Below, piece by piece: positions 7,997 through 14,719 of a DNA stretch of 64,000 bases; position 1 is the stretch's first letter, and every line of letters begins with the position of its first letter. The position numbers and the translations under genes were made by a program. The stretch is from a virus, in the UHGV virus genome UHGV-0112973. One strand, given 5' to 3'. Below the pieces are notes generated by a model. The model was not told the origin of the DNA, made no database searches, and worked only from the letters and a program-made list of their open reading frames with translations.

Positions 7997-8037
7997 GGCA
8001 CTTGTGTGAATCCCTTTTCGGAAGAGATTTTATTGAA

Positions 8038-8048
8038 AGTCACTTGTT
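8038..8048 (-). promoter_or_regulatory. putative late-promoter box upstream of head gene
   Basis: AACAAGTGACT on the gene strand; the same 11-mer occurs upstream of the portal gene. Confidence 0.35.
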
Positions 8049-8107
8049 GACTTTCTCGTGACAAGCAATTTTTTTATTTTTTTCGGGAGTAGGGGCGGAA
8101 GGTAAAA

Positions 8108-8200
8108 TCCAAGGTGAAATCGTGGCGATTTCACCTTGAAATTTTAGATGGATTTACTTTAAAAACAGTAGGTTAATAGTGAAATTTGAATGGCGAAAGT
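8108..8200 (-). promoter_or_regulatory. parS: parS centromere-like partition site
   Basis: Minus strand reads TCGCCATTCAAATTTCAC...ATTTCAAGGTGAAATCGCCACGATTTCAC with box A (ATTTCAC) and box B (TCGCCA) motifs right after parB. Confidence 0.85.
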
Positions 8201-9202
8201 TTAAGGCTTCGGCTTTTTATCGAGGCTCTTTCTAAGGATATGCCCAATCATCCTGTCGAGTTCTTCCTGTAGCTCTTTTGAAAGTCGATTAAACTCATAA
8301 GAAAATGCACGGCCTTTCACGCGCTTCCTTGCAAAGCGATCCTTGTCCTCAAATTTCCATAATTCAGTAACTACGGACTTATCTTTAGAACCTTTATCCG
8401 TGAGTAGTGAGGCTTCCTTTGTTATCAAGCGCAGGATTTTATTTTTAACTTCATCTTCGGCCATTTCTTCAATGGATAAGATGTCGTTTATTTCCGGGGA
8501 TATGTTTTGAATAAGCTGATCAAACTCTAAATTCTTGTTCCCCATTTCGTCGCCAACAGCACAAAGCGTTTTGTAGTCCGAAAAGGTTAATTCCGACTGC
8601 ACAGGGAAAAGGGCGACTAATTCTTCCGGAGCACTCGCTGCCTGGAGAGCACGCGTGACCTTCGCCTGAGACAGCCCTTCTTTGGCTGCAATATCCTTCT
8701 GACTCATCCCATCATTTTTCATTCGCATCAAACGCAGACCTATTTCTCGAATGCTGTGCTGCAATGCTGTCTGAACGTCTTTCGCTAAATTTTGCGCTTC
8801 CTGAACGCTGATCTCCTGGTCCGTGACTAAAACCCGCAACCCTACGTTCTCTAAGATGGCAGAAGCTCGACGCCGGGAACCATCCAAAATTTCAATTTTC
8901 CCTGTAGCCCGTCTAACACCTATTGCAGGGTAAAATTGCTGATGCTTAATAGTGCTTCGGATACTTTTTAATGATTTTGGCGTAAGAGATGCCTGGTCAC
9001 GCCCGTTGTTATGCTGATCAACAAAGGTATCGCTTTCTACCTGGTTCGGAGGTATTACCTCTTCAATAAATGTGGCCTGGCGACCAGTTGATAACTTGAA
9101 TACCTGCTCGACTCGATCGCCAGAGGCTGAAGAACTATCAAATCCGCTTAATATTGAAGGATTAAGGGTTCGCCCAATTGTTGGTCTGTTTTTCTTTGAC
9201 AT
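8201..9202 (-). CDS. parB: plasmid partition protein ParB
   Basis: 333 aa; sequence recognised as P1 ParB along its length. Confidence 0.96.
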   Translation of the reverse strand: MSKKNRPTIGRTLNPSILSGFDSSSASGDRVEQVFKLSTGRQATFIEEVIPPNQVESDTFVDQHNNGRDQASLTPKSLKSIRSTIKHQQFYPAIGVRRATGKIEILDGSRRRASAILENVGLRVLVTDQEISVQEAQNLAKDVQTALQHSIREIGLRLMRMKNDGMSQKDIAAKEGLSQAKVTRALQAASAPEELVALFPVQSELTFSDYKTLCAVGDEMGNKNLEFDQLIQNISPEINDILSIEEMAEDEVKNKILRLITKEASLLTDKGSKDKSVVTELWKFEDKDRFARKRVKGRAFSYEFNRLSKELQEELDRMIGHILRKSLDKKPKP

Positions 9203-9218
9203 GGGGGTTTCTTACTCC

Positions 9219-10415
9219 TCAGTTAGATCTGATAAATTCAATACGGTCAAAAACTGCTTTAGCAAAATCTTCCGCGGCAATTCGCGCGTTCTTCAATGCA
9301 TCAGCACTACCAACATACGTTGCCGGGTTAGCTGAAATAACAGTGTCAAAAGACTCGCCGCAGCGTTCAAAACCGTCAAGGCGAGGGAGGACGACATCAA
9401 GCATATCCCCACCGAACACTTCTTTAGCCAGGCTATGGCAATACTTATGGTCTGCCTTGTTACTCAACTTGGACATAAAACCAATGTTAGTCGCAAGCTG
9501 GCACTCGCAGCCTTCATCCGAAATGAGTTTCACCAACTCAGGAAGGCGGGCAACGTATTTAAGCGATGAGTGGAAATCAACCGTTGCAGGCGGCAGAGGT
9601 GTAAACAGTATATTGGCCGAGGCCAAAGCATTTTTCAGGAAGGCGTCAAGGTGAGGACCACTATCAACGAGGATAAAGTCATAATCGCTCTTCAGCTTAT
9701 CAATCACATTTTCTTTCAGGACAGCATGGATGTTCTGACCCGGTAGATGCTCATTGCACAGCTCTCTCCAATCGGATGCAATAAAGGCATCGTCAATCGA
9801 CGCAGGCATAACGTCAACCCCAGGTACAACAGAAGGAACAATAAACTCCTCTAACAGCTCTTCACGGCTTACATTCTGCAACATAGCCTGTGCAGATGTT
9901 GCGTTTACGATACCAATAGAGTGTTTATGGCTTAAAAACATCGTTGCTGAAGATTGCGGATCAAGGTCAATAACCAGAATCCTTAAATCTTCCATCAGAA
10001 GATGAGGATGAGCACGCATTGCATGCGCCAGAGAAACCGTCGATACAGTTTTTGACACACCGCCTTTAAGATTGGAGATGAAAATCACATACGCTTCGCT
10101 GTAGCGATCCCGGTATTTTGGCACTCCGCGATGTTCATATATGTCAATGATGTTCTGAATTGACATCGCATATTTCATTGAAGAGCCAGCAGGGCGTTTA
10201 TCGAAAACATAACCCTTTTCTTCCATTTCACTTACGGCATAGTCAACGTTCGCACGAGTCAGTAGAGGCAATTTTGCCAGTGCCGCTTTCGCATAGACCT
10301 GGTAAAACTCGTTCGCGTGTAGCTCATCCTTTTGCAACTGTACTTGTTCAGTCAGAACATTGAGCATTCTATTTGCTCTTTGAGCAACCTTGTGAAGCTG
10401 GCTGGAATCACTCAT
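9219..10415 (-). CDS. parA: plasmid partition ATPase ParA
   Basis: 398 aa; recognised as P1 ParA (KGGVSKT Walker A, N-terminal regulatory domain). Confidence 0.96.
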   Translation of the reverse strand: MSDSSQLHKVAQRANRMLNVLTEQVQLQKDELHANEFYQVYAKAALAKLPLLTRANVDYAVSEMEEKGYVFDKRPAGSSMKYAMSIQNIIDIYEHRGVPKYRDRYSEAYVIFISNLKGGVSKTVSTVSLAHAMRAHPHLLMEDLRILVIDLDPQSSATMFLSHKHSIGIVNATSAQAMLQNVSREELLEEFIVPSVVPGVDVMPASIDDAFIASDWRELCNEHLPGQNIHAVLKENVIDKLKSDYDFILVDSGPHLDAFLKNALASANILFTPLPPATVDFHSSLKYVARLPELVKLISDEGCECQLATNIGFMSKLSNKADHKYCHSLAKEVFGGDMLDVVLPRLDGFERCGESFDTVISANPATYVGSADALKNARIAAEDFAKAVFDRIEFIRSN

Positions 10416-10500
10416 CGAAAGTCATCCTTTATGCTGTATTTTTGAATTTAATTAAAAATGCTGCATAAAATAATAATGTATGCGTAGATGCTTGTACATA
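10416..10500 (-). promoter_or_regulatory. parA promoter/operator region
   Basis: AT-rich region immediately upstream of parA; position as in P1 par operon. Confidence 0.4.
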
Positions 10501-10554
10501 GCATTCTCTGCATGTTTGGTTCATTTTGCACGATTGAGAGTTACAAGGAGGGCA

Positions 10555-10576
10555 CAAAAAAGCCCCGTTCAGGGGC
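10555..10576 (-). terminator. rho-independent terminator downstream of the T5orf172-like gene
   Basis: gcccc-gttca-ggggc hairpin followed by U-run on the minus strand. Confidence 0.55.
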
Positions 10577-10583
10577 ATCAGTG

Positions 10584-11393
10584 TTATTTGCTAAGAGCAG
10601 CGAATAATCGTTCGAAATCGATAGTATCTATAGCACGCGTAAGCGCCGGAAGTTCAGCCTCAAAGTACCCGTGTCGATCGTAAAAGAAGGGACCGAAGAG
10701 CGAGGCATGTTGGATTCTACTTCGCCCCAGCCCGGACACACAGTTAAGCCCATTACCGGCTAAAAGGCTAAAAAACTTCTCTGGATTATCGTGGTAAAGC
10801 TGGGAATCAATGGTGGCGGTTAACTCTTCCATAGGGAAGCACACCCGCCTTGTCTCCCAGGGATATTTAGTCCGAAGCATAAACATTGCTTTCAGCAATT
10901 CACATTGAGCGCGGATCGCGTCCGGTTCATAGCCAGATATGGAGACATAAGCCACGTCCCTCATTCCTGCGTCATCTTTGAAAGTCACGATAGAAGTAAC
11001 ATCCAGCTCTTTTTCGAAAGAGCGAGCAGCATCTACTGGACGCTGAAGTAAATCATTCGACTTAATGCGCTCGAGAATCCCTCCCCACATATCATTTAGA
11101 TATTCGATATGAGCCAAAACCTTATCAAGACACTCTCGTGTAAACCATTCAGTATGCCCGCCACCGGCGCTTTTCTCCCACGGCGCATTCCAGGGGAAAA
11201 AGGTTGCGTGTAAAGCCCGCTCAAGATTAACTATTGCCAAACGCGTACCACGATAGACCCGTGAAAGCGCAAAATCGGGACTCACTTGTAGCCCTTTAAA
11301 CCGTGCCAATGGACCACATGAAATGCCGATTTTAAAAGTATCTCCATTCTCCGGCACCAGAACGTAGAGGTAGTGTTGTTTCTCTTCTTGCAT
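10584..11393 (-). CDS. T5orf172/GIY-YIG-like domain protein with uncharacterised C-terminal domain
   Basis: 269 aa; N-terminus YLYVLVPENGDTFKIGIS...ARFKGLQ...LERALHATF...GGHTEWF fits the T5orf172 pattern. Confidence 0.6.
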   Translation of the reverse strand: MQEEKQHYLYVLVPENGDTFKIGISCGPLARFKGLQVSPDFALSRVYRGTRLAIVNLERALHATFFPWNAPWEKSAGGGHTEWFTRECLDKVLAHIEYLNDMWGGILERIKSNDLLQRPVDAARSFEKELDVTSIVTFKDDAGMRDVAYVSISGYEPDAIRAQCELLKAMFMLRTKYPWETRRVCFPMEELTATIDSQLYHDNPEKFFSLLAGNGLNCVSGLGRSRIQHASLFGPFFYDRHGYFEAELPALTRAIDTIDFERLFAALSK

Positions 11394-11424
11394 ATCAATA
11401 CCACTGCTTGATGAGAACCGCGCA

Positions 11425-11690
11425 AATGTTGACTATGCGCGAAAGTTAATGTGAATAGTTGACTATGCGCGATGTGACTACAGTCAAAAGTTGACTGTAG
11501 TCGATTTAACTCCACCAAAGATCGACTATGTAAGATATTGTCGGGAGAAACGTTGACTATACGCGATGAAATGACCCTAAAAGCCATCTCAATAGCGACT
11601 TGCAGAATATTGACGCCAGCAAAAATCCACCAGCGTCAACGAATGTCGCCTATAGTCAACTTCTCGCTATCGCATATAGTCAATATTATG
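11425..11690. repeat. incA-like iteron array downstream of repA
   Basis: About 8 copies of GTTGACTATGCGCGA-like repeats in both orientations. Confidence 0.8.
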
Positions 11691-12570
11691 GATTGCGCTT
11701 ATGGATCTGGAAGCCGATTTTCCTGCCGTTTTTTATTTCTGAAAATTTAAGATATTCAATAGCTTCCAAATCTTTCATGGCTTTTCTGATAACGCTATTT
11801 TGCACGCTAACGGATGATTTGAGATTAAGCCTTGCTCTAAGGCGCTCAATGCTGACAGGTGCCGGGTTGGCGGGTAGAGCCTCAAAGAATGTATACAGTA
11901 CCTTGGCCGTCTCTTTGCGCCCGAGCTTATCCAGCATCTTCAGCTTCAGGATTCGCTTATAGTCAACATAGTAAAGTTCAGATAGCTGTTTCTGCGGCTG
12001 GATCTCGATAACATCAAGCTCGGTATTCAGGCTGCTATATGCCAACAAGTTGACGTTAATGTTATTGAGATGACCTTTTGCCGCCGGGAAGCGGAATTTG
12101 ACAACTGTCTGCTGAATGCGTGTCAGAGAGTCATCAATACTTTTACGGAACGCCTTTGAAAGGCGCTTACGTGGATAGCCGCATCGATCGGCAAACTCGG
12201 AGAATGGCAGGGTGATTATGCCGTCATCATCAGGTGCGTAGTCAAACAACGCGGAGGTTATGCCCACCCACACCTTAAAATCAGTATCCATATCCAGGCG
12301 TGGGCCATGAATTTCAATTCCCTCATAGCCTTCCTGCTCAACAATTTTAAGGCTTGATAGTTCTTCGGTTGCGTTCGTTGTGTTTGTAGTAACTGACGAT
12401 CCGCGACGTAGTGCCACATTGGTAGATTTTAAGGTTGGCACAAACACACCTAAGCGCAACAAAGCGATAGGTTGTATAGTGCTGTTGTTATTGGGCTTCA
12501 GGCTGTGGATTTCTCCTGTATTTCCTGCAACTTCTTCAACGCTAAGGAAGCCTTTACTTTCTTCCGGCAT
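11686..12570 (-). CDS. repA: plasmid replication initiator RepA (P1 RepA family, divergent sequence)
   Basis: 294 aa; conserved core ...GPRLDMDTDFK..., flanked by iteron arrays. Confidence 0.85.
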   Translation of the reverse strand: MPEESKGFLSVEEVAGNTGEIHSLKPNNNSTIQPIALLRLGVFVPTLKSTNVALRRGSSVTTNTTNATEELSSLKIVEQEGYEGIEIHGPRLDMDTDFKVWVGITSALFDYAPDDDGIITLPFSEFADRCGYPRKRLSKAFRKSIDDSLTRIQQTVVKFRFPAAKGHLNNINVNLLAYSSLNTELDVIEIQPQKQLSELYYVDYKRILKLKMLDKLGRKETAKVLYTFFEALPANPAPVSIERLRARLNLKSSVSVQNSVIRKAMKDLEAIEYLKFSEIKNGRKIGFQIHKRNP

Positions 12571-12651
12571 CGTGGTTTCTCCATGTGTGGCGCGGCCTGG
12601 CGTTAATTTAGATGACTGTTATCAACAGCTGTGAATATTCAGGCTCTAAAA

Positions 12652-12751
12652 TCGCGTACAGTCAACGTTTCTGTCGCGTATAGTCAACAATAAATCGCGT
12701 GCAGTCAACATAAAATCGCACACAGTCAACATAAAATCGCGTATAGTCAAT
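12652..12751. repeat. oriR/incC: five direct iterons at about 21-bp spacing upstream of repA
   Basis: TCGCGTACAGTCAAC, TCGCGTATAGTCAAC, TCGCGTGCAGTCAAC, TCGCACACAGTCAAC, TCGCGTATAGTCAAT. Confidence 0.85.
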
Positions 12752-12759
12752 GTTGATCC

Positions 12760-12865
12760 CGTTTCAGGCCATGAACGGCGCGGCTTACAGCGATCCGGGA
12801 TCTTCTTTGGATCTTCCTGGGTTCTCTTTGGGATCTGTTTATTGGATCTATGCTGTGGATAAGTT
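12760..12865. promoter_or_regulatory. origin-associated GATC cluster and DnaA box
   Basis: Six GATC sites within about 90 bp and TGTGGATAA DnaA box, as in P1 oriR. Confidence 0.7.
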
Positions 12866-12904
12866 GAATAAACCGGCCAACATAGCCGGTTGGAAGGAAG
12901 GGTA

Positions 12905-13297
12905 TTATTCTACGCTTTCGATAAGAAGACCATGTTCATAACATTTAAGCTCATCGCCTTCGTACAGGAATTGGTATCCAATACCACCATTTTCATGGAC
13001 ATTAGGGAATAACTCATAACTCACTGAAGAGCAAATCACACCTATGCAGCGATCAACGCCTTCTCGTTCTTCAGTGCTGAAAAAATCCTCTTCGGTAAGA
13101 ACATGAGTACATTGCTCATCAGCATAGGTCGGAAATACATGCTCAATGCAATCCGGGTGTTTTAAACCAAGCTGAGCGGCAAGCTCGAAAGCATGACGGT
13201 ATTGTTCAGATCCTGGCTTGCCAACAGTGATGTGCTCAATTTTGTAGATTGAAGTCGCTTTGTTGATAGTTTGCTTAACTGTTACTTTATCAGACAT
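12905..13297 (-). CDS. hypothetical protein (P1 upfA position)
   Basis: 130 aa ORF; synteny only. Confidence 0.45.
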   Translation of the reverse strand: MSDKVTVKQTINKATSIYKIEHITVGKPGSEQYRHAFELAAQLGLKHPDCIEHVFPTYADEQCTHVLTEEDFFSTEEREGVDRCIGVICSSVSYELFPNVHENGGIGYQFLYEGDELKCYEHGLLIESVE

Positions 13298-13308
13298 AAA
13301 AATCCCTT

Positions 13309-13635
13309 TTAGTTACCGCTGATAGCGCGGTTGTAATCATTAACGTTGCGATTCTTCCTGTTAATCCCCATCAGCATCGTTTCTGTATCGAGGATATACG
13401 CTGGCAGATCATCAAAATATTCACTGCTAAACTCCGGCATCCTGCACATAAATGCACTTTTGGGGGCAGGGTGGTTAACCTTTGTCGGCGTTAAATTCGC
13501 TGATCGACTCCCGGAGCAACCGCTGAGTGTCAGCAGGAATGCGCTGGCGAACATTACCCGCCGCAACCAGTTGTTTCTGAACTTCAGCTTTTCGTTCCAT
13601 TTGCCTGTCAGCATACTTGGCTTGCTCTGATTCAT
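13309..13635 (-). CDS. small lipoprotein (P1 mlp position); true start probably the internal Met at 13554
   Basis: Signal peptide plus lipobox LTLSGC; ORF overlaps next gene unless internal start is used. Confidence 0.55.
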   Translation of the reverse strand: MNQSKPSMLTGKWNEKLKFRNNWLRRVMFASAFLLTLSGCSGSRSANLTPTKVNHPAPKSAFMCRMPEFSSEYFDDLPAYILDTETMLMGINRKNRNVNDYNRAISGN

Positions 13636-13918
13636 TTTTCACTTCCTGGCTGTGAAAATGTTGCTCTGCTTTGTTCATCGTCTCAATGGTCTGGTTAAGA
13701 TCCATTATTGACTTATCACGTTCCTTAACAGCCTGATCAAGACTGCCAATTTTCTCTATGGCTTGCTTTAGCTGATGACGTTCCCATGCAAACCCAGCAC
13801 CAACAAGTGCGCAAATCAGAACAAGAACACCAGTAGCAGCAAGTTTCTCCTTCAAAGACAAAGCTGTTTTTAACGTAGAAAAGAATGACATGTCTTCCTC
13901 CTGAAGAAAAATTATCAA
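13475..13918 (-). CDS. membrane-anchored coiled-coil protein (P1 ppfA position)
   Basis: 147 aa; one N-terminal TM helix then charged helical region. Confidence 0.5.
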   Translation of the reverse strand: MIIFLQEEDMSFFSTLKTALSLKEKLAATGVLVLICALVGAGFAWERHQLKQAIEKIGSLDQAVKERDKSIMDLNQTIETMNKAEQHFHSQEVKNESEQAKYADRQMERKAEVQKQLVAAGNVRQRIPADTQRLLRESISEFNADKG

Positions 13919-13930
13919 TGAAGTCCTTTG

Positions 13931-14719
13931 TTACTGTGCCGCTTTGTTTAATTCATCAAGAACAGAATCAGGAACCAAAGCAGCAACTGCGCTGGCTGTG
14001 CTGGCCTTATTTGCTGATGCTTCCGCAAGCGCGGTACCGATAGCATGGCCATAAGCAGTTATGGCTACGTTGGCGCTTTCATTCGCTCGTTCATACTGCT
14101 GTTGTAACGCAGTTGTGGGCGCTGTTGTCTGGTTGAAAACAACCCCAAACTGTTCAGTTGCTACTTTCAGAGATTCAATTTGCTCTTCTGTTAGTGTTGG
14201 TGGGGGAGTGGCAGTGCCGCCGCCTGAACCAGAGCCTGACGAGCTTACTGAGCCAGTGTTAAGGGTCTGGTTAATCTCCCCCATAGCAGCGACTAAACTT
14301 GATGTATTAAGCGCGTTAACAGCGTCCTCAAGCGATTTAGTAATATTCACATCACCAATGGCAATAGAGATCGGCAGTTCTGAAACTTCTCGCTCATTAG
14401 CACGGCAGTAAACATCCCAACCAATATCGAGTTGAAGCAGCATTGACAGATCTGCATAACCAGCCAACAGGTCCGCGTGCTTAGTTGCCAGTTCTCCAAT
14501 GTTCGTTAAGCCGGTTGTGGTTGTTCTTATCGTTGAAACATAGCAGGTAATAGTGTCGGGATAGACAATTGTATCCAGAATTAATCCGGTCAATTCTTCT
14601 GCAAGCAGTTTTGCTGTGTTAGCACAGTTTCGTGCCGATGTTATGGCACCAGGTGTTTTCATCCCACCGGCGGCGGCCAATTTTTTATATGCGGATAACT
14701 GGTAGTCTTTTTCCAGCAT
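13931..14719 (-). CDS. hypothetical protein (P1 upfB position); start set at Met with AGGAG RBS
   Basis: Track ORF 13931..14776 trimmed to ATG at 14719 preceded by aggag. Confidence 0.5.
   Translation of the reverse strand: MLEKDYQLSAYKKLAAAGGMKTPGAITSARNCANTAKLLAEELTGLILDTIVYPDTITCYVSTIRTTTTGLTNIGELATKHADLLAGYADLSMLLQLDIGWDVYCRANEREVSELPISIAIGDVNITKSLEDAVNALNTSSLVAAMGEINQTLNTGSVSSSGSGSGGGTATPPPTLTEEQIESLKVATEQFGVVFNQTTAPTTALQQQYERANESANVAITAYGHAIGTALAEASANKASTASAVAALVPDSVLDELNKAAQ

Follow-up and report, generated by a model that had tools for sequence, protein, structure and literature searches.

The rep-par region of P1 is a textbook model of plasmid maintenance, and P1-like phage-plasmids frequently carry genes for resistance and virulence. 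In phage T4, GIY-YIG homing genes bring about the exclusion and co-conversion of nearby markers. A lineage of phage homing endonucleases has been described that is encoded by T5orf172 genes; its members lie at genetic exchange boundaries, and it is common for some isolates to carry an inactivated version (Barth, Dunham & Seed 2023, PMC10448857). Odn (ICP1 gp88) combines a T5orf172 nuclease with a RepA_N domain homologous to the initiator of its target, whose iterons it cuts (Barth et al. 2021, PMC8263062). Among 55 P1-like elements, 24 were assigned to p0111 and 31 to IncY, and in JL22 the IncY repA is replaced by repA' (p0111) and an unknown gene, gp57 (PMC9603915). Here, we describe ORF269, a gene in the rep-par region of UHGV virus genome UHGV-0112973, as analysed in a stretch of 64,000 nt (the window, whose positions serve as coordinates). 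ORF269 is the last gene of an alternative p0111 replicon cassette, not an insertion into the P1 replicon. We tentatively propose, from its sequence and context, that it is an accessory, homing endonuclease-like or "selfish" conflict nuclease that benefits the cassette that carries it.

A blastn comparison of the window with P1 (NC_005856) gives 99.2% identity from parB past the par promoter, Ppar, to position 10517, no similarity from 10518 to 12776, and 95% identity from 12777 onward, a part that spans the GATC/DnaA-box part of oriR, upfA and mlp. The P1 DNA that is replaced comprises the incC iterons, repA, incA and a non-coding spacer, and its counterpart in the window contains origin iterons, repA, incA-like iterons, ORF269 and a terminator (Table 1). 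The order on the minus strand is origin iterons, repA, incA-like iterons, ORF269, terminator, Ppar, parA and parB. Like the IncY replicon of P1 and P7, this replicon has five origin iterons, a Rep3-type RepA and downstream iterons in two orientations, with a par operon that is 99% identical and a DnaA-box/GATC part of oriR that is 95% identical. It differs in its iteron sequence and its RepA and consequently in incompatibility type (p0111 in PlasmidFinder terms; PMC9603915), and the IncY replicon lacks ORF269 and its terminator. ORF269 is present in the p0111 type and absent in the IncY type between conserved par and oriR/upfA flanks, always with the heterologous repA and iterons.

The gene map of the window agrees with the initial annotation that an open reading frame (ORF) lies between the incA-like iterons and the parA promoter. 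It starts with ATG and is unbroken over 269 amino acids. It also has a terminator of its own, as that annotation had claimed: a strong hairpin with a T run, GCCCCTGAACGGGGC then TTTTTTGT, begins 7 nt past the stop codon, within the cassette that is non-homologous to P1. The gene had further been predicted to be absent from P1, and the interval between Ppar and incA iteron 1 is indeed non-coding, being 171-190 bp in P1 and about 110 bp in P7, with no ORF in either. The idea that a cargo gene had been inserted into the repA-incA-parA array of P1 has to be abandoned, since the whole replicon specificity part differs and ORF269 is a constant component of the cassette. Loss of the gene from P1 was considered and rejected as well, because alignments of the P1 incA-Ppar spacer were no better than shuffled controls save for the shared Ppar, and tblastn found no remnant.

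The location of ORF269 places it near the boundary of an exchanged segment. Between its stop codon and the par-side junction with P1-like sequence there are 66 bp, and this junction falls on the same nucleotide in all 44 informative loci. In the same loci, the ori-side junction varies by no more than about 10 bp. The flanks of p0111 loci are 94.4%-99.5% identical to P1 on the par side and 87%-98% on the ori side, and this variation among loci indicates that the cassette resides in recombining backbones. Between P1 and P7, similarity in the IncY cassette (97.5%) starts only at incA iteron 1, where the breakpoint lies, and the spacer and par operon differ; this module swap makes the incA/par boundary a recurrent exchange junction. 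The corresponding stretches are L001 4119-4287 in P1 and L049 3395-3503 in P7.

The prediction that the N-terminus is T5orf172/GIY-YIG-like was upheld by a Pfam search and by the motif residues. Residues 8-85 match T5orf172 (PF10544) with an E value of 7.6e-6 and 26.8 bits over profile positions 2-87 of 101, where the gathering score is 20 bits. A single distant homologue, P0004, was found across all searches; it is 44% identical and scores 30.9 bits against T5orf172, and it also passes the MUG113 cut-off of 22.3 (25.8). By profile hidden Markov model (HMM), both lineages are therefore above the gathering score of the T5orf172 family. The GIY-YIG-type motif residues (YxY, (Y/K)-I-G, an Arg about 8 residues on, and a Glu) are all present, and Y8-L9-Y10, K21-I22-G23, R31 and E82-W83-F84 are unchanged between the two lineages despite saturated synonymous divergence (dS). 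The motifs of the GIY-YIG protein 1YWL align with YLY, KIG and R of ORF269 in a match that is non-significant (E 0.34). In PHROGs, the full-length protein corresponds to phrog_2876, of unknown function, and a further match of the N-terminus, at 1e-9, is to a phrog annotated as "endonuclease". Database labels for ORF269 read "GIY-YIG nuclease family protein" or "T5orf172 domain-containing protein", and the unknown gene gp57 of the JL22 paper is its counterpart. Other labels are doubtful, such as "terminase small subunit" for ORF269 in phi456 (OR339795) and the RefSeq label "replication helicase" for the RepA of P1, P7 and RCS47. A literature search found no paper on the function of ORF269.

The C-terminal 170 amino acids had been called unrecognised, and they indeed gave no family matches in Pfam, NCBIfam, PADLOC or PDB sequences; an NCBIfam search with ORF269 was likewise negative. 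A profile of this domain recovered only fragments of the ORF269 family in an exhaustive HMM search of 1.84 billion representative proteins. The region is acidic, with an isoelectric point of 5.3 here and 4.8 in P0004. A known defence system was ruled out by the lack of any PADLOC-DB v2 defence model matching ORF269 at E up to 1. Derivation of the C-terminus from RepA, as in an Odn-type chimera, was ruled out for both the p0111 and IncY RepA (hhalign probability 0.1%, BLASTP E >4). On these features, we assign ORF269 to the T5orf172 domain family alone and class it neither as a proven homing endonuclease nor as an Odn.

Comparison with described systems shows partial resemblance to each. Like the T5orf172 homing endonucleases of ICP1 and T5-like phages, ORF269 has a PF10544 domain, is free-standing, lies beside essential genes at the edge of an exchanged segment, and is frameshifted or truncated in some isolates. 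In those enzymes, however, the nuclease is mostly C-terminal to DNA-binding modules (in phrog_681, for example, the match covers profile positions 437-538 of 576), whereas in ORF269 it is N-terminal, and ORF269 has an acidic orphan C-terminus instead of their CapR, DUF723, DUF4397 zinc-finger or RepA_N modules. Unlike them, it is confined to a single copy at a single site of one plasmid-replicon lineage and shows no sign of having spread to other sites. The resemblance to Odn lies in a T5orf172 nuclease that is tied to iteron modules swapped as RepA-plus-origin units and is plausibly a weapon of one element against another. ORF269 differs in that its C-terminus has no similarity to RepA and no initiator-homologous DNA-binding domain (RepA_N or Rep winged helix), and in that its gene is part of a replicon, whereas Odn belongs to a lytic phage that attacks a satellite. 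I-TevI and the Seg proteins of T4 share with ORF269 a size of about 250 amino acids, an N-terminal catalytic domain of about 100 residues, a linker and a C-terminal targeting region (putative in ORF269), encoded by a free-standing intergenic gene. ORF269 belongs to a different branch (T5orf172, with KIG replacing YIG) and has no basic helix-turn-helix or zinc-finger domain.

The cassette is widespread and uniform. Over 1.3 kb, it is 98.9-99.5% identical in RCS47, SJ46, phi456, JL22, Ro157c2YLVW and others, and the window has near-identical repA, iterons and ORF269 in the arrangement of RCS47, SJ46 and JL22. At least 80% of the cassette is present in about 392 PLSDB plasmids. The ORF269 protein was found by tblastn in 401 of 72,556 plasmid records, always at >=90% identity, and p0111-type RepA (at least 95% identity) in 395, an essentially 1:1 association. 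Among 50,697 phage records searched in the same way, ORF269 was present in 12, all of them p0111 P1-like, and scans of IMG/VR and GTDB yielded close copies alone, in unchanged context. A word-indexed search of 5.8 billion clusters for more distant homologues, with the full protein and the N-domain profile, returned only this family. The gene for P0004, on a P1-like contig of 95.7 kb in a Logan assembly, is flanked by parA on one side and by repA and its iterons on the other, a position identical to that of ORF269; the RepA and ParA of this locus are 84% and 89% identical to those of the window. On this contig (L003 10001-10123), the homologue as predicted by the gene caller includes 41 additional upstream codons that run across the iterons, and the Met aligned with M1 is the likely start. 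No replicon of the L003 type was found in PLSDB.

Several rearranged copies were also seen. Seven copies of ORF269 among complete Escherichia coli genomes are chromosomal. Truncated remnants (codons about 99-269 or 184-269) occur in plasmids of 183-231 kb (NZ_AP027761.1, NZ_AP027538.1), which are presumably cointegrates or rearrangements. OY842570.1 (L050) is a 17-kb circular plasmid with P1 head genes, parAB, ORF269, repA, upfA and insertion sequence (IS) elements; this deletion derivative shows that the p0111 cassette and par maintain a small replicon. Its MOB-suite type, IncHI1B, looks mistyped.

The pattern of selection is that of a gene that is dispensable and nonetheless retained. Synonymous sites are saturated in all genes between the two lineages, and nonsynonymous divergence (dN) is 0.52 for ORF269 (0.28 in the N-domain and 0.70 in the C-half), compared to 0.13 for repA, 0.07 for parA and 0.26 for parB. 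Within the common lineage, the ratio of nonsynonymous to synonymous diversity (piN/piS) over 35 loci with all genes complete is 0.28 for ORF269 (N-domain 0.27, C-half 0.285), 0.024 for repA, 0.002 for parA, 0.03 for parB and 0.16 for upfA; purifying selection on ORF269 is about 10-fold weaker than on repA. At the level of 90%-identity protein clusters, there are 1241 distinct ORF269 sequences versus 381 for the co-distributed RepA. Inspection of 45 loci gave 36 intact alleles, five with S112*, one with Q228*, one with an insertion, one with a lost start and one cut by a contig end, so that about 18% of sampled alleles are disrupted; the allele of the window is intact. The Q228* allele belongs to Salmonella phage SJ46 (L038 4324-5130), a working phage-plasmid. 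The S112* allele, from five IMG/VR loci (L010, L011, L013, L014, L016), appears in gene calls as a pair of overlapping ORFs (1-111 and 102-269) and accounts for large clusters of 111-aa and 168-aa proteins. In L045 (6294-8060), an insertion of roughly 1.8 kb, probably an IS element, follows about codon 98, and ORF269 sequence is lost up to the equivalent of window position 10870. ORF269 is therefore dispensable for maintenance of the element and under weak purifying selection.

These data bear on two other explanations. One is that ORF269 is a decaying passenger, acquired once by the ancestor of the p0111 replicon, perhaps as a homing endonuclease, and persisting with little or no function by linkage to an essential replicon. 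The disrupted alleles, the many distinct protein variants, a piN/piS ten-fold above that of repA and equal in both domains, the fixed junctions, which fit a single historical event, and the failure to find homologues elsewhere are all in its favour. We consider it unlikely, because piN/piS is still well below 1, 80% of alleles are intact, and an intact ORF with invariant motif residues is present in two lineages with saturated dS, over which a neutral 810-bp ORF would not last. The persistence of ORF269, intact, with its motif residues and in the same position, across a very old split argues that it is not neutral and not mere junk. The other explanation is that ORF269 is a sensor-bearing nuclease for defence or exclusion, comparable to Odn or an abortive-infection effector, in which the C-terminal domain would bind an invader protein (a rival initiator, a partition protein or a phage protein) and the T5orf172 effector would destroy the invader's DNA without gene conversion. 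This appears somewhat unlikely: in addition to the absence of a PADLOC match and of RepA similarity, the even piN/piS over both domains points to relaxed constraint, not to an arms race focused on the sensor.

The layout of the locus suggests how ORF269 may be expressed. On the coding strand, a scan from repA to ORF269 detected neither a sigma-70-like promoter nor a terminator, and the strong terminator follows ORF269. A promoter of its own between the last iteron and the ATG was rejected, as no sigma-70 site was found there by scan or by eye in either lineage. The distant lineage has an equal layout, with its own hairpin past the stop codon of the homologue. The simplest reading is that ORF269 is probably expressed by read-through from a RepA-autoregulated repA promoter, by analogy with P1, in which PrepA lies within the incC iterons (P1 annotation); expression would therefore be tied to periods when RepA is limiting.

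Probable co-transcription, together with strict linkage to the p0111 repA and iterons, could also indicate a domesticated accessory of the replicon, such as an SLX1-like structure-specific nuclease or DNA-binding regulator acting on RepA-iteron handcuffed pairs or stalled forks, or a modulator of copy number, possibly recruited by RepA. A weak resemblance of the low-confidence N-domain model to SLX1 is compatible with such a role. In RepFIB relatives, whose RepA is 45-47% identical, an opposite-strand tyrosine recombinase gene lies directly downstream of repA (L051 6272-7012, L052 5320-6060), and, across replicon lineages, the slot past the downstream iterons is occupied by different DNA-processing genes. 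We regard this explanation as improbable, given that nonsense and insertion alleles persist in otherwise intact, widespread elements including SJ46, that IncY and RepFIB replicons function without ORF269, and that ORF269 diverges 4-7 times faster than RepA and ParA.

Table 1. Features of the p0111-type rep-par region, in window positions
Feature	Position	Strand	Description
Replicon cassette	10518..12776	minus	2.26 kb replacing 1.5 kb of P1; ORF269 is the par-proximal end; blastn against P1
ORF269	10584..11393	minus	269-aa protein with N-terminal T5orf172/GIY-YIG nuclease-like domain and orphan C-terminal region
T5orf172 domain	11139..11372	minus	Codons 8-85 of ORF269; Pfam match
Orphan acidic C-terminal region	10587..11093	minus	Codons 101-269 of ORF269; no Pfam/PDB match
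Intrinsic terminator of ORF269	10552..10576	minus	Stem GCCCC/GGGGC, loop TGAAC (10576..10562), T6 run; terminator scan and sequence reading
incA-like iteron array	11428..11686	both orientations	3' of repA; repeat families D1, D5, D6 and inverted pairs
repA, p0111 type	11686..12570	minus	294 aa; Rep3 WH1/WH2
Origin iterons, incC equivalent	12652..12753		Upstream of repA; five copies, 21-bp spacing, sequence identical to incA-like iteron
Ppar promoter	10470..10498	minus	TGTACA-17-TATTAT; same as P1; begins about 20 bp past cassette junction
parA	9219..10415	minus	398 aa; ParA helix-turn-helix and P-loop
parB	8201..9202	minus	333 aa

Around ORF269, the p0111-type RepA is 42% identical to P1 RepA and 45-48% identical to RepFIB initiators. 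The incA-like array repeats a 15-nt iteron (TCGCGYATAGTCAAC) 6-7 times, with a pair of copies at 11646-11686 and four or five inverted ones at 11428-11566. Spurious ORFs across this array (11282-11587, minus strand) give a repeated "AHSQ/AYSQH" in translation. The iteron carries TTGACT on the plus strand, the strand on which a sigma-70-like site (TAGTCA-16-TATAGT) built from the two repA-proximal iterons lies at 11653-11680, antisense into the 3' end of repA; this site may be due to chance or may be an antisense promoter under RepA control. An Rfam scan of window positions 8000-14000 gave no matches at E up to 1.

If ORF269 is a conflict nuclease, as we tentatively propose, it would be an accessory endonuclease acting on DNA, a member of the T5orf172 branch within the GIY-YIG superfamily, encoded by the terminal gene of the p0111 cassette and itself taking no part in replication or partition. 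It would be expressed at a low level by read-through from the repA promoter, peaking upon plasmid entry into a cell, while RepA is in short supply. The nuclease would cut a rival P1-like genome that lacks ORF269, in or near the rep-par region, and the rival would then be lost or be repaired from the p0111 template, each outcome favouring the nuclease-bearing cassette. Targeting could reside in the fast-evolving C-terminal half, acting by DNA binding or, given its acidity, via a DNA-bound protein. We infer nuclease activity, target, mode of expression and the homing or exclusion effect; the proposal draws on the T5orf172 domain with its motif residues, the exchange-boundary position, dispensability, relaxed constraint, retention, the expression layout and near-exclusion with IncY. 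It also has a precedent in T5orf172 homing endonucleases, which lie at exchange boundaries and have been repeatedly recruited as origin-directed nucleases. The suggestion in the initial annotation of a role in plasmid or phage conflict is compatible with relaxed selection, frequent knock-outs, the position at an exchange boundary and rare co-residence with IncY.

Co-residence was assessed in 5426 complete E. coli genomes, among which ORF269 is present in 412 (7.6%), nearly always on plasmids, and IncY repA in 359. The union obtained with a concatenated query is 769, and therefore about 2 genomes contain both, compared with an expectation of about 27 under independence. ORF269 and IncY repA do not occur together in any single record. 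A more specific version of the conflict-nuclease proposal is that ORF269 is a replicon-linked "incompatibility nuclease", which on entry would cut the IncY rep-par region of a resident P1/P7-like plasmid, directly or via a bound protein, so that the rival is eliminated or its cassette converted to p0111; we consider this version quite doubtful.

Several observations weigh against a conflict nuclease. Shared parS incompatibility and shared immunity would by themselves make co-residence rare, and the genomes are related and not independent samples, which makes the contrast approximate; the deficit fits any mutual exclusion among P1-like elements and does not single out an effect of the nuclease, although it does not contradict exclusion of IncY elements by p0111 elements either. 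Searches of the C-terminal 170 amino acids against Pfam and PDB sequences recovered no DNA-binding family, and the acidic C-terminus differs from the basic DNA-binding domains of I-TevI and from the zinc-finger and RepA_N domains of T5orf172 homing endonucleases. AlphaFold models are of low confidence (predicted local distance difference test 55.4 for the full length and 46.6 for the C-half), so that fold matches, including weak winged-helix-like matches of the C-half, are hints at most. The fixed junctions are consistent with one ancient replacement followed by ordinary recombination, judging from the loci aligned; variable junctions, as a trace of repeated conversion, were looked for and ruled out, since junctions are the same in all loci. 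Finally, ORF269 was never found at another site, in another element, or as a simple presence/absence insertion in the 72,556 plasmids, 50,697 phages, IMG/VR, GTDB, 5.8 billion clusters and 1.84 billion representatives. The sporadic distribution of a homing endonuclease, with relatives at other sites, is thus not seen, and confinement to one site is at odds with a homing gene that is actively hopping.

The annotation of the gene and the p0111 cassette were known; the orphan acidic C-terminus, the 44% identical homologue in the same position, the weak selection and disrupted alleles, the prevalence in E. coli and the near-exclusion with IncY are new. About half of P1-like phage-plasmids use the p0111 cassette, which accounts for the presence of ORF269 in 7.6% of complete E. 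coli genomes. The interest of ORF269 lies in this prevalence, in its place in a classic model system, and in the testable possibility of incompatibility or homing between P1-like plasmids. If it is a decaying passenger, it would have little import beyond annotation. If it is a conflict or homing nuclease, the exchange-boundary principle of lytic phages would extend to plasmid replicons, and an active mechanism would be added to incompatibility. If it acts as an incompatibility nuclease in particular, replicon type in P1-like phage-plasmids would be a driven and not a neutral trait, which would help to explain the near-equal abundance of the two replicon types and how scarcely they share a genome.

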